From Nitrospinota bacterium (GTDB taxonomy: Bacteria; Nitrospinota_A; UBA7883; JACRGQ01): a stretch of DNA of 64,000 nucleotides. The stretch is taken from positions 7,968 to 71,967 of the forward strand of contig JACQEX010000005.1 in assembly GCA_016200345.1 (NCBI GenBank), written 5' to 3'. Below are positions 11,299 through 63,612 of the stretch, piece by piece; positions within the stretch are counted from its first letter, which is position 1; each line of letters starts with the position of its first letter. The notes below the pieces were generated by a model that did no database searches, had not been told where the DNA came from, and was given only the letters and a program-made list of their open reading frames with translations. The translations under genes were made by a program, and so were the position numbers.

Positions 11299-11598
11299 AT
11301 GGAAATCATCAACATTGGCGAGAGGTCTAGTTTTGGGGCGCAGTTCGCGCCGATTGTATTGCGCGTCTCAAAAAAATACAAAACCCCGCTTATCTGCATG
11401 AACCCGGGGCAGGAGATACCGCCGCACCCGAGCGCGACCGGCGTCTTTTACATCGTCGGCGGAAGCGCGGTCATGACGGTCAACGGGCAGGAACACAACG
11501 TGAAGGCCGGAGACATGGTTTTTGTGGACGACGGCGACACAAGGGGAATAAGGGCGGTGGAAAAACTTACGGCGTTTGCGGTGCACATCTCGTCCTAG
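11299..11598 (+). CDS. Cupin domain protein
   Basis: 99 aa; PGQEIPPH, FYIVGG, VKAGDMVFV; AGGAG RBS. Confidence 0.85.
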   Translation: MEIINIGERSSFGAQFAPIVLRVSKKYKTPLICMNPGQEIPPHPSATGVFYIVGGSAVMTVNGQEHNVKAGDMVFVDDGDTRGIRAVEKLTAFAVHISS

Positions 11599-11742
11599 TG
11601 TGGCGTCCCAGCATCATCTATGCGGCGACACAAATTGGTGGCAACGGGATTTATCCTGTTGTTGCGCCCTCAGGGGCGCAAGGCAGGCTAAAGCCCGCCG
11701 CTACCAACGAATGGTAAAGCCGTTATTGGGACACTACGCTAG
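11595..11742. mobile_element. CTAG-bounded MITE containing an inverted pair of REP hairpins (copy A)
   Basis: 17-bp imperfect TIRs at 11595-11611 and 11726-11742; REPs at 11638-11661 (+) and 11681-11704 (-); homologous to 62067-62366. Confidence 0.75.
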
Positions 11743-60447: not shown

Positions 60448-61055
60448 CCCCGGTCCGCGACACGGGAGAAGTTTTCCAGCATTTTGAGGCCCGCCGACTG
60501 GCTCTTCTCCGGGTGAAACTGCGTGGCGTACACGTTTTCTTTTTCCACCGACGAAACAAAATTAATCCCGTATTCCGTCGTGCCGGTGGCCACGTCCCCC
60601 TCGGGCGCGACGTAATAGGAATGGACGAAATAAAAATACGAGTCGGACGGGATGCCGTCGAAAAGGGCGGACTTTTTCGTCGTTTGTACGTTGTTCCAGC
60701 CCATATGCGGAACCTTAAGCTCGCCGTGCGGAAACCGCAAAACCTTACCCTTAAGAACACCCAGCCCCTTTTGGACGCCGAACTCCTCGCTCTCGTCGAA
60801 CAACAGCTGTAATCCAAGGCATATGCCGAGGAACGGCCTGCCCGACTCTATGTACTTTCTTATCGGGTTGGAGAGCGAGTAGCCGTCCAGCCGTTCCATG
60901 CAAAGGCCGAAGGCTCCGACCCCGGGCAGGACAAGGCCGGAGGCCGAGGCGATAAAGTCGGCGTCACGCGTGATGATGGCGGGTGAGCCGATTTTTTCAA
61001 ACGCCTTTTGGACGCTTCTGAGGTTGCCCATGCCGTAGTCCACTATGGCTATCAT
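60444..61055 (-). CDS. hisH: Imidazole glycerol phosphate synthase glutaminase subunit
   Basis: ATG 61055; IVDYGMGNL, LGICLGLQ, PHMGWN, QFHPEKS. Confidence 0.97.
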   Translation of the reverse strand: MIAIVDYGMGNLRSVQKAFEKIGSPAIITRDADFIASASGLVLPGVGAFGLCMERLDGYSLSNPIRKYIESGRPFLGICLGLQLLFDESEEFGVQKGLGVLKGKVLRFPHGELKVPHMGWNNVQTTKKSALFDGIPSDSYFYFVHSYYVAPEGDVATGTTEYGINFVSSVEKENVYATQFHPEKSQSAGLKMLENFSRVADRG

Positions 61056-61089
61056 TTTGCCGTCCGTTTCTTGGGGAGGCCCGCTGAAA

Positions 61090-61674
61090 TTAAAGCACGC
61101 CCTTGGTGGAGGGAACGCCCACGGACCTAGGCTCCCGCCTTGTCGCGGCATCTAGCGCGCGGGCGAGAGACTTAAAAACCGCCTCCGCTATGTGGTGCAG
61201 GTTCGTCCCGTGCTCCACCTTTACGTGCAGTGTGAGGCCCGCGGAGTTTGCGAAGGCCTGGAGAAATTCCTCTATAAGCTCCGCGTCGAAATCGCCTATC
61301 TTCCCCTTCGGGATATCCCCTTTGAAGACAAAGAAGGGCCTTCCGGAGCAGTCAACCGACACGGAGGCAAGCGCCTCGTTAAGCGGTATGCTTGCATGGC
61401 CGAATCTGGCAAGCCCCTTTTTGTCACCCAACGCCGCTTTGAATGCCTGGCCCAGCGCGATGCCGCAGTCCTCCACCGTGTGGTGGAAATCAATCGCCGT
61501 GTCCCCCACAGCCTTAATCTTTACGTCGAAAAAGCCGTGCTGGGAAATTTGGTTGATCATGTGGTCGAGGAACGGCACGGACGTGTCTATGGAACTCTCG
61601 CCGACGCCGTCAATTTTAAGTGAGAGGCTAATCCGCGTTTCCTTGGTGTTTCGCTCGATTGATACCGTTTCCAT
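61090..61674 (-). CDS. hisB: Imidazoleglycerol-phosphate dehydratase
   Basis: ATG 61674; RNTKET, FLDHM, HHTVED, NLHHIAEA, STKGVL. Confidence 0.97.
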   Translation of the reverse strand: METVSIERNTKETRISLSLKIDGVGESSIDTSVPFLDHMINQISQHGFFDVKIKAVGDTAIDFHHTVEDCGIALGQAFKAALGDKKGLARFGHASIPLNEALASVSVDCSGRPFFVFKGDIPKGKIGDFDAELIEEFLQAFANSAGLTLHVKVEHGTNLHHIAEAVFKSLARALDAATRREPRSVGVPSTKGVL

Positions 61675-61783
61675 CCGTACCAAACTATAGCATTTCCCGC
61701 GCCCCAATAACAGCCACCCCACTTCAATATGACGGTTGGCAAATGGTCTGGAAACATTAAGATATACTAATTAAAATATTTAG

Positions 61784-61812
61784 TTGACAAATATAGTAGG
61801 GTATATTATCCT
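61784..61812 (+). promoter_or_regulatory. Sigma70 promoter divergent from hisB
   Basis: TTGACA-17 nt-TATCCT. Confidence 0.6.
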
Positions 61813-61848
61813 TCCTTTACTTTAACGATTAAAGAAAGGAAAAGAGTC

Positions 61849-61968
61849 GTGAACGAGTTGATTGGTTTTTTGCTGATAGTCGTCGGATTGGTTCTTGCCT
61901 TCTGCCCCTTTATTCGCGGCGGGATATGCGAGACGTTGTCGGCAAAAGACAAGACGGAGCGGATGTAA
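61849..61968 (+). CDS. 39-aa single-TM small protein (absent from ORF track)
   Basis: AAAGGA RBS; MNELIGFLLIVVGLVLAFCPFIRGGICETLSAKDKTERM. Confidence 0.5.
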   Translation: MNELIGFLLIVVGLVLAFCPFIRGGICETLSAKDKTERM

Positions 61969-62066
61969 GTTTTGCGTTTAAGTACACACCTGTTTAAAAC
62001 GGAGACGCTTCCGAACGGAAACACCGTTTATCCGAACGTGGCCCAGGGCCAGGTGGTCTACTGGTT

Positions 62067-62366
62067 CTAGGGCGGTGTTCCAGTATCTCCTTTACAGGCG
62101 GCGCCTGCGCCAACACGAATTGGTAGCAACGGGATTCATCCTGTTTCTGCGCCCGCAGTGAATGGTTGAGACTTTAAAATGTGAATCAGAGCGAGCGGTT
62201 TGAGACTGTATGAGGGTTGACGAAGGCAGGGCGCAAGGCAGGCCGCAGTAAACGACCATATACTTCCGCCCTCGAAGTCAGAGCGTGTATTATTGCCACT
62301 AGAGGATGGTCGCCGAAAAGCCCGCCGCCACCATAGCGTAATTCTTTTACTGGGACACCGCACTAG
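62067..62366. mobile_element. CTAG-bounded MITE with REP hairpins (copy B, expanded)
   Basis: TIRs CTAGGGCGGTGTTCCAG / CTGGGACACCGCACTAG (15/17 complementary); internal blocks shared with 11595-11742. Confidence 0.75.
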
Positions 62367-62381
62367 GTGATATTCTACGAA

Positions 62382-63612
62382 TCAACCGCCGATGAAGCGG
62401 CGGACGCGCGGGAGCAGTTCGTCCTTGTTGACGGGCTTTGCAATAAAGTCCGAGGCGCCAAGTTGAAATGCCTTGGTGCGCTCCTCTATTCCAAAAGCGG
62501 TCATTAAAATCACCGGTATGTCCTTAAGGCTTGAATCCTTCTTTAGCTCTGAAAGCAGGCCGTAGCCGTCCATTTTTGGCATCTGGATGTCCGATAATAT
62601 CAGGTGGGGTCGCGCGGTTTTTATCTGTTCCAACGCCTCGGCCCCGTTGGTAGCCTCGCGAATAACGCACCCCAAGTGATCCAGAAGGGCGATTGTCAGC
62701 CTTCGCATGGGGCGGTCGTCGTCCACCACAAGAATCGAGGGTCTCACCCTAGGGAGGCGAATTGTAAAAGTGGAGCCCTTCCCCTGCTCGGACGCGACGT
62801 CAATGACCCCTCCGTGGGCTTTTACGATGTCGGCGCACAACGGCAGTCCAAATCCCGTTCCGGGTTCGTCGGCCGTGCCGAAGGCGGAGGTTTTTACCTC
62901 GTGTTTAAACAAGTCTGGCGTCAGTTTTGGATTTATCCCCACCCCCGTGTCGGTGATTGCCACCGCGCCCTCGTCCGACGCCGGCGAATGAAAACGGATG
63001 ACGTCCCCGTTTTTGCAGAACTTCACGGCGTTTGACGCAAGGTTGTTGAACACCTCCTGTAGAAGGGAGACGTCGCCGTACAAGGCAAGATTCTGCGGAA
63101 TTTCATTTACAAACCGAACGCCCTTTTTGTCGGCCACGGCTGAAAGCCCGGAAATTGCCCGTGCCGACAGCACGGCCGCCGAGGCAAAACTCGTGTGCAT
63201 AATCATTTTTCCGCCCTGCAGGCGCGAGATGTCCAGAAGGTCGTCCACCATTTGAACCGCGTTCCGGGCCGTTGTGGTGATGCGTTCGACAAATTCTTTG
63301 GGTGTATCTTTTCGACCAAAAATCGTAGTCGAAAGTCGCGTTCTCGACCCTCCTAAAACCGCGATAAAAATAAAATCGCATGGCGGTGAGGGCCAAGGCG
63401 GAGAAGCCCCAGGCAAAAAGGTGGTCTGGCATGGGGGGTTCGGTCAGTTCGAGTAACGTTAAAACCACGACCGCAACGGGAACGGAAACGAACGAATTTG
63501 TGAGGTTGTCGTAGGCGAGCCTTAATTGAAGGTGTTTAATCCTCATCGCGAGCGACGCCTGCCCGTCGCGAACGTCTAAATTGGCGTCCGCCGTTTTCAC
63601 ATTCGTTGACAT
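62382..63612 (-). pseudogene. Hybrid histidine kinase with internal deletion and frameshift
   Basis: Membrane-sensor N-terminus (63612 to ~63310) joins out of frame to the HisKA second helix, HATPase and REC; H-box absent. Confidence 0.75.

Follow-up and report, generated by a model that had tools for sequence, protein, structure and literature searches.

A CTAG-ended MITE of a Nitrospinota bacterium that carries two copies of an unstructured 71-75-nt repeat module

The window analyzed here, a stretch of 64,000 nucleotides, lies within contig C59 of the 2.24-Mb assembly of a Nitrospinota bacterium (113 contigs, 54% G+C, 93% completeness). At positions 62067-62366 it contains a 300-nt copy of a CTAG-ended inverted-repeat element (a MITE), the base form of which is 157 nt long. 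The element is flanked by convergent units: just upstream, at 61784-61968, we observed a promoter-like site (TTGACA-17-TATCCT) followed by a hydrophobic 39-aa ORF that has no Pfam match and is unsupported as a gene, and on the other side the minus strand encodes a hybrid histidine kinase with HisKA, HATPase_c and Response_reg domains (62382-63416), whose stop codon is 15 nt from the element's right end.

The element is bounded by two CTAG-ended terminal inverted repeats of 19 nt each (62067-62085 on the plus strand and 62348-62366 on the minus strand), which are 89% complementary with 2 mismatches. The arm of the window copy reads CTAGGGCGGTGTTCCAGTA and the opposite-strand arm is the same word with 2 mismatches; the GTAG word of the left arm lies within the family consensus CTAGTGTAGTGTCCCAGTA. 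The two arm matches in the window were reproduced in none of 100 shuffles. All of the inner parts were assigned to the plus strand. The left inner REP (62118-62145) consists of the tag GGTAGC and the hairpin AACGGGAT-TC-ATCCTGTT, and is the part conserved in relatives. It is followed by TGCGCCC (62148-62154), the left arm of the central hairpin that forms the apex of the base-element fold, and then by module copy 1 (62155-62225), a B-type copy of 71 nt situated in the apex loop, with a repeated GCA next to it at 62226-62228. The right arm of the central hairpin, GGGCGCA, runs into the left arm of the right REP, GGCAGGC (62229-62243). Module copy 2 (62245-62318), a C-type copy of 74 nt, stands where the right REP hairpin otherwise has its TAAA loop, and the right arm of this REP, GCCCGCC, comes next together with the tag GCCACC (62320-62332), a degenerate form of GCTACC, the complement of GGTAGC.

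Copy A, at 11595-11742 on the plus strand of the window, represents the same MITE in its base form: it is 148 nt long and free of modules. A previous sequence-only reading had listed a series of motifs in the 300-nt copy, in the same order as in copy A, and every one of these motifs was recovered in that order: the 28-mer AATTGGTAGC...CCTGTT at 62118-62145 occurs again at 11633-11660 with 2 mismatches, and GGGCGCAAGGCAGGC is exact at both 62229-62243 and 11674-11688. The same reading had placed two extra segments at 62155-62228 and 62244-62316. Both are real, and our boundaries, set by comparison with empty MITE copies and with the module profile, are within 1-3 nt of those positions. The internal likeness that it described between the two inserts was confirmed as well, CCGCAGTGAA and CCGCAGTAAA starting 90 nt apart and TCAGAGCG occurring twice, 92 nt apart.

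The left CTAG of both copies had also been read as supplying a stop codon to an upstream frame. For copy A this is correct, as its left CTAG closes a real 99-aa ORF, a Cupin_2 gene; for the window copy it is only nominal, the CTAG closing just a 32-aa TTG-start ORF (61972-62070) with no support as a gene. Across the genome, 8 of 39 CTAG-starting MITE ends (21%) form the stop of an inward-reading ORF of at least 90 aa. The word CTAG is itself strongly avoided in the genome, with 1,262 occurrences observed vs 8,626 expected (a ratio of 0.15), and a crude gene call locates 895 of them in genes, 79 at stop codons and 288 in intergenic DNA; stops thus account for 79 of 367 non-genic CTAGs (22%), both counts including the MITE's own ends. 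Even so, TAG makes up roughly one in four of the crudely called stop codons (499/2,072). With MITE ends and non-genic CTAGs so alike in this respect, the proposed preference for stop codons as targets has a simpler explanation: the element ends in CTAG, and a CTAG target together with the loss of insertions within genes is enough to produce the pattern.

A search with the consensus arm gave 57 genome matches (up to 4 mismatches), among which 16 plus/minus arm pairs delimit 16 complete elements of 148-376 nt. Single copies have lengths of 148, 160, 206, 224, 229, 235, 374 and 376 nt, two copies each have 236 and 300 nt, and four have 157 nt. MITE backbone was found at 39 loci in the genome, which are unrelated in their flanks where compared. 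The 157-nt base form is a single long hairpin of -43.2 kcal/mol as single-stranded DNA (z = -9.2), and none of 200 shuffles folded as well; for the whole 300-nt element with its two inserts, the folding z is down to -1.16. The interior of the base form comprises, in order, the GGTAGC-tagged hairpin, the apex hairpin GCGCCC-GCA-GGGCGC and the hairpin GGCAGGC-TAAA-GCCCGCC with GCTACC. The first and the last of these are GTAG-type REPs that face in opposite directions within a longer palindrome, a build that the account of Di Nocera et al. 2013 (PMC3733652) describes in other bacteria. Each REP has a GTAG-type tag beside a short GC-rich hairpin, and the two form an inverted pair (GGTAGC+AACGGGAT..ATCCTGTT on the left, GGCAGGC..GCCCGCC+GC(T/C)ACC on the right). 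We classify the host element as a MITE on its terminal inverted repeats, its small, non-coding nature and its multiple copies at unrelated loci. Both of its ends are CTAG, compatible with a TA or CTAG target.

The two inserts are members of one repeat family of 71-75 nt, in which GCAGTRAAYG, RTCAGAGNG and GGTYGMCGAAR follow one another with a variable part in each of the two gaps, and which has about 100-120 profile matches in the genome. An nhmmer profile made from 16 segments gave 121 matches (77 nearly full-length); R1, a covariance model of sequence only that was derived from 40 diverse module copies, gave 108; and the strict pattern GCAGTRAAYG-N19-26-TCAGAG-N26-34-CGAA had 49 exact matches, 25 forward and 24 reverse, against none for the reversed control. 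An alignment of module copies shows three conserved blocks (5' GCAGTAAAYG, central AAGTCAGAGCG and 3' GGTTGCCGAAA), to which the invariant positions are confined, and two intervening parts with strong differences from one sub-type to the next. Identity is 92% within the B-type and 91% within the C-type, and 53% between B and C, with the three blocks shared. As read from the consensus, the module is devoid of terminal inverted repeats, its 5' end GCAGTAAACG not matching the complement of its 3' end (TTTCGGCAAC). In total the modules amount to 6.7 kb, or 0.3% of the assembly. Contig ends lie within 300 nt of a module or MITE in 23 of 226 cases, and these repeats may contribute to assembly fragmentation.

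As members of a multi-copy family, the inserts are not unrelated random decay peculiar to one copy. The suggestion that they might be spacer-like or match phage or plasmid DNA fared no better, and a CRISPR-like spacer or captured foreign DNA was rejected on the family membership and on the lack of any blastn match in 50,697 phage and 72,556 plasmid records. An autonomous parent element was sought as 5' and 3' blocks 0.1-4 kb apart, and this search returned loose chance pairs and broken modules only. The locus itself was found in 4 DNA runs of one groundwater study (labelled groundwater metagenomes), the runs listed including none of RNA. Logan contigs of those 4 runs end inside the repeat and revealed no empty/filled polymorphism, and one contig joint skips 62155-62227 with TAA between, which fits paralogous copies without module B and not an allele at this position.

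Of 98 strong module matches (E<1e-5), 45 are in or beside the 39 MITE-backbone loci and 53 are elsewhere. One to three modules are present in 10 of the 16 complete elements, and both backbone sub-families are represented among those 10. Three sites are used within the MITE: the apex loop (site 1, GCGCCC^[module]GCA-GGGCGC), the loop of the right REP (site 2, GGCAGGC-C[module]A-GCCCGCC) and the joint after the right REP (site 3, GCCCGCC^[module]GCTACC), all of them unpaired in the minimum-energy fold of the base element. Away from the MITE, modules occupy the loops of other REP families, such as GTACAGGCC[module]AAAGCCCGTAC-CTACC, found twice in tandem on C15; they also occur in the REP array beside a RAYT gene on C42 and directly 3' of the REP tag CCTACC. 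They are nested in each other, a B-type module being inserted at CATCACC^GCTAC of another module and an X-type module at AGAGCGA^GCGG of a B-type module. Finally, solo modules are found in otherwise unique spacers, e.g., at C38:24119, C99:1167 and C95:19931. When all module contexts, within and outside the MITE, are grouped by flanks, 32 are distinct, not all of them independent, and the C-type alone has at least five left flanks and at least seven right flanks with constant end points. The crude gene call shows no clear bias in the orientation of modules relative to neighboring genes.

In the filled form of sites 1 and 3 and of both module-in-module sites, exactly one module has been added to the empty form, immediately 5' of GC. 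This holds for 4 of 5 nested site types, and hence two to three bases (GC/GCA) are found at both sides of the module. Over the 32 contexts, the left flank has C at position -2 in 25 and C at position -1 in 18, and GC opens the right flank in 12, a number that rises to 20 with extra A's permitted after CGAAA. Site 2 is the exception, since AGGCC[module]AAGCCC is not derivable from AGGC-TAAA-GCCC by one insertion; in the C42 array, likewise, filled and empty REPs differ by replacement of the whole loop. The idea of loop-targeted insertion has to be qualified: all three sites are unpaired; however, one of them is a joint beside a hairpin, and the REP-loop form is not a clean insertion into the TAAA loop. 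The site pattern could also come from survival, if only loop insertions leave the MITE able to spread. Two further observations concern the surroundings of modules. The motif AATCTCCTTTGCGGCG(A/T)ACCGGCGCC, often followed by TGTCCAGTTTGTCC, stands directly 3' of several modules (C36:4029-4360, C98:34221-34260 and C75:3300-3345), which points to further members of a mosaic repeat set. At C96:22493-22650, two head-to-head modules surround a GCCGCGCAAGCG hairpin, and the same hairpin is located 5' of a module at C67:632.

The 5' and 3' halves of modules reassort at the central GTCAGAG block. The X-type 5' half is paired with two different 3' halves, as are the B-type and C2-type 5' halves, and chimeric modules joined at the central block were identified at C77:38373, C93:247, C75:3672 and C72:33237. 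Deletions between neighboring modules were seen as well, e.g., at C1:94, C12:148, C24:136 and C52:15851. In the MITE copies on these four contigs (C1, C12, C24 and C52), one hybrid module has the left flank of site 2 and the right flank of site 3; the DNA between two neighboring modules has therefore been deleted.

The window copy shares its pair of modules, B plus C, with the copy at C112:14078-14377. Identity between the two is 95.8% and stops at the borders of the element, the flanks being unrelated. Two 300-nt copies in unrelated surroundings show that the enlarged MITE has kept spreading as one unit after module capture.

Taken together, these observations, all from one metagenome-assembled genome in 113 contigs, make it probable in our judgment that a non-coding hairpin MITE has been enlarged by two copies of an independent, structure-less, small non-autonomous mobile module. 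The host is an element in which CTAG-ended inverted arms enclose two opposed GTAG-type REP hairpins and a central GC hairpin, and this MITE has probably picked up two copies of a second, independent 71-75-nt repeat with precise ends. The module itself behaves like a very small piece of non-autonomous mobile DNA, as suggested by the occurrence of the same sub-type, with the same end points, in many unrelated contexts and by mutual nesting. Modules recombine at GTCAGAG, giving chimeras and deletions, and the enlarged MITE has since spread onward as one unit.

The same junctions can be read without any transposition, as the outcome of template switching or short-homology recombination in hairpin-rich DNA, after which REP arrays and MITEs would have carried the modules along passively, a route that the extra motifs of BIMEs may share. 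The 2-3 nt shared at the junctions (GC/GCA) are what microhomology leads one to expect; the chimeras at the central block and the deletions between neighboring modules, the replacement-like appearance of the REP-loop form and the fact that no dedicated enzyme was found in the assembly all agree with it. However, random switches would not give base-identical end points in 32 contexts together with conserved termini, and solo copies such as those at C38:24119 and C99:1167 are located in unique DNA without nearby homology. We therefore regard this explanation as unlikely.

Three nearly invariant blocks between fast-changing parts might instead indicate that the module is a selected functional unit, acting as a small RNA or as a site to which a host protein binds, and that its position in loops reflects this function. 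The folding data speak against this. Over 64 unique modules, mean z values range from -0.05 to +0.19 (both strands, RNA and DNA parameters), no better than shuffles, and on the two strands the window modules gave +1.06/+1.00 for copy B and -0.82/-1.13 for copy C. RNAalifold found no consensus structure for the modules on either strand, and a screen of column pairs in 40 module sequences retained no stem of 4 bp or more and no covariation. The module has no palindromic stem-loop of the kind that would make it a REP, and in being unstructured it differs both from the hairpin mini-modules usual inside REPs and from its host MITE. No Rfam 15 match at E up to 1 was obtained for either strand of 61000-63500, and a structured RNA or ribozyme was rejected on these grounds (no Rfam match, no consensus fold, no covarying stems and z about 0); a hammerhead-like look (...TGATGA..GAAA) noticed by eye in some module copies does not hold from one sub-type to another. 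Attempts to read the conserved blocks as IHF sites or promoters, by eye and with a promoter check, gave nothing convincing within the element. Considering also the lack of a clear orientation bias relative to neighboring genes and that no module was found in the same-genus genome G001, we judge a selected function very unlikely to explain the module.

The occurrence of the two repeats in relatives bears on the direction of change. A genome of another genus of the same family (G006) has 13 MITE-arm matches, and both of its complete copies that were examined are 173 nt long and have the same architecture with no module. In these copies (L215:1501-1673 and L037:1488-1660), we observed that the right REP is kept through changes on both arms (GACCGAC/GTCCGTC vs GGCAGGC/GCCCGCC); the middle position of its stem is mismatched in both species, a feature reminiscent of the irregular stem on which the E. 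coli RAYT depends. With model R1, no module was detected in 31 of 32 other Nitrospinota genomes, including G001 (94% complete), and the strict pattern detected no module in G001 or in the other Nitrospinota genomes searched. A 21-bit R1 match to the 5' half of the module was seen in a genome of another family (G021 C60:740-809, locus L197; CAGTAAC.GATCATATTCTT..TATTCCAAGTCA); it lies inside a 559-aa ORF and is probably due to chance. Two stricter-pattern scans of JGI metagenome contigs gave 0 module matches, exact patterns being apt to miss diverged relatives. A pattern scan of species-representative genome contigs gave at least 90 single matches. When 105 external loci (pattern matches together with later-fetched regions of the genome itself) were scored, the best reached 13.7 bits vs 45-68 bits for real module copies; by score, the species-representative matches listed and 15 viral matches look like chance.

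The growth by modules proposed in the sequence-only reading is thus upheld as a gain: the inserts are interrelated, modules are carried by most complete elements of this genome, and the G006 copies are without them. Because the G006 MITEs lack modules and modules were not found in the relatives searched, the comparison supports the base form as the older state and the modules as what would be a recent gain specific to this lineage. The opposite course, also raised in that reading, in which the long form came first and exact loss of the inserts produced short copies such as copy A, could draw on the short direct repeats (GCA, GC) that flank some modules and might support slippage deletion, and is nevertheless extremely improbable given the module-free outgroup copies and searched relatives, the modules outside the MITE and the fact that no single deletion turns filled site 2 into the empty form.

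If the module is mobile, as we favor, we can only suppose that it moves as single-stranded DNA through the action of an HUH/Y1 enzyme supplied in trans. Three proteins exceed the NCBIfam REP_Tyr_transpos (NF047646) cut-off, encoded at C42:381-869, C74:2923-3480 and C53:46-1005. Also present are one single-copy IS200-like gene, two Xer-like integrases and, where a contig breaks off, one rve fragment; searches of the assembly, 93% complete, gave no match to DDE_3 (IS630), DDE_Tnp_1, IS110, RVT_1 (reverse transcriptase) or TnpB. The IS200-like gene (C62:7902-8270) was rejected as a parent, being single-copy, placed beside tRNA genes and without module-like ends.

The three RAYT genes differ in their surroundings. 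The C42 gene, flanked by GGTAGG/GGTGGG-tagged hairpins as expected of a RAYT, is on the minus strand in a classic REPtron (C42:1-1200, L041/L217). Upstream of it are three GGTAGG-tagged hairpins and two GTACAGG-TTAAAA-CCTGTAC-CTACC hairpins, and the array on its downstream side is BIME-like: REPs alternate, spacers are fixed, and one and the same REP has either a TTAAAA loop or a 73-nt module. The C74 gene (region C74:2860-3700, L039/L223) has REPs of another type at its flanks, GGTAGAGG-CGACA-AGAG-TGTCC-CTCTACC. These flanks contain the motif GGGACACTC, which resembles the MITE arm GGGACACTAC, a likeness by which this RAYT may possibly be linked to the MITE. The C53 gene (L038) encodes a 319-aa RAYT-like protein with a C-terminal helix-turn-helix tail, and a series of GGGGTCAAGG/GGGGTCATGG repeats lies upstream of it; these may be similar to the motif of TIR-associated tyrosine transposases in the account of PMC3733652.

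A module is found within 300 nt of two of the three RAYT genes, a proximity confounded by REP clusters, and 11 of 13 family relatives without modules also have RAYT homologues. According to the work on RAYT cleavage in PMC8266576, these enzymes bind the GTAG-tagged hairpin and cut at CT or CA beside it, the dinucleotide being set by pairing with the tag. The MITE ends (CT^AG, three bases from GTAG) fit this picture and the module ends do not; tried on either strand, the CT-cleavage rule fails at the site after GCCCGCC. That a RAYT moves the module is argued by exclusion, because the three RAYT genes are the only intact transposase-like candidates, and we consider it possible but doubtful. Against any Y1 model, the module contains no hairpin of the type bound by Y1 enzymes, and the CT/CA rule shown for RAYTs in PMC8266576 does not hold at the module ends. 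The boldest version of the mobile reading, a new kind of ultra-small transposon with no inverted ends, hairpins or gene, which would enter unpaired repeat tips as single-stranded DNA under a 'GC' rule, cut by a RAYT-type Y1 enzyme that uses the REP hairpin as a handle, is in our view rather improbable. Under the proposed GC rule, the left flank and the element's own end both read ...GC on the bottom strand, as in IS200/IS605. If it were true, RAYTs could carry cargo, and the hairpin loops of REPs and MITEs would be landing pads.

Several known systems resemble the module and its host in part. ERIC elements reportedly carry insertions of roughly 70 bp at fixed internal sites, and they share with our element the lengthening of a palindromic intergenic repeat by ~70-bp inserts at specific internal positions. 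REP-targeting insertion sequences (IS1397/ISKpn1, IS110/IS1111 family) are full elements of at least 1 kb with a transposase gene. They insert into or beside REP hairpins, as the module does; however, the module is a 73-nt unit with no gene and no inverted ends, and the assembly has no matching IS. PATEs are small derivatives of IS200/IS605 elements, and like both of these the module has no inverted ends and no clear target duplication. It differs from IS200/IS605 in having no subterminal hairpins and in following the flank rule in just 12-20 of 32 contexts. On the bottom strand, the left flank often ends with GC and the element ends with CTGC, recalling the word that precedes both cleavage sites of IS200/IS605 as presented in PMC8266576.

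REPs themselves are described as IS targets in PMC3733652. Our elements share with REP, BIME and REPIN sequences and their RAYT (TnpA-REP) the GTAG/GTGG-tagged hairpins, their alternation and the conserved spacers (PMC3733652; Corneloup et al. 2021, PMC8266576); the RAYT genes on C42 and C74 are flanked by REPs, REPs with variable or long loops are known (PMC3733652), and a mosaic of REPs and extra motifs is shared with BIMEs. However, the long loops described in PMC3733652, of up to about 27 bp, are self-complementary; here, the loop holds an unstructured 73-nt unit found also away from REPs, and the module ends are without the CT/CA cleavage dinucleotide. The nearest analogue of an inverted-repeat element varying by modules is the pneumococcal BOX. 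The BOX of Streptococcus is made of boxA, a variable number of boxB and boxC, with extra boxD/E/F in S. suis (Croucher et al. 2011, PMC3049150). As portrayed there, it is likewise a composite enclosed by inverted repeats and owes its variable length to internal modules, which make few fold contacts and can be absent or multiple at no cost to the fold. In contrast, boxB in that account forms one tandem array at a single position, and here modules use three separate unpaired sites and are nested in each other; moreover, 53 of 98 strong matches are outside the host element, and there is no sequence relation to BOX. We found no paper linking Nitrospina with repetitive extragenic elements. Mosaic and nested bacterial repeats are thus known in kind, and what is new is a REP-type MITE that harbors an independent, unstructured repeat of 73 nt, a moderately unusual instance of nesting between selfish elements.

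This single genome shows small repeats growing by capture at positions that spare the hairpin, and then spreading. A 73-nt unit that has exact ends but does not fold is not readily reconciled with movement by inverted-repeat transposases or through the recognition of REP hairpins, and the module is a concrete substrate for asking what RAYT-type enzymes mobilize. Between the genes of this bacterium, the module and MITE repeats create hot spots of short-homology recombination.
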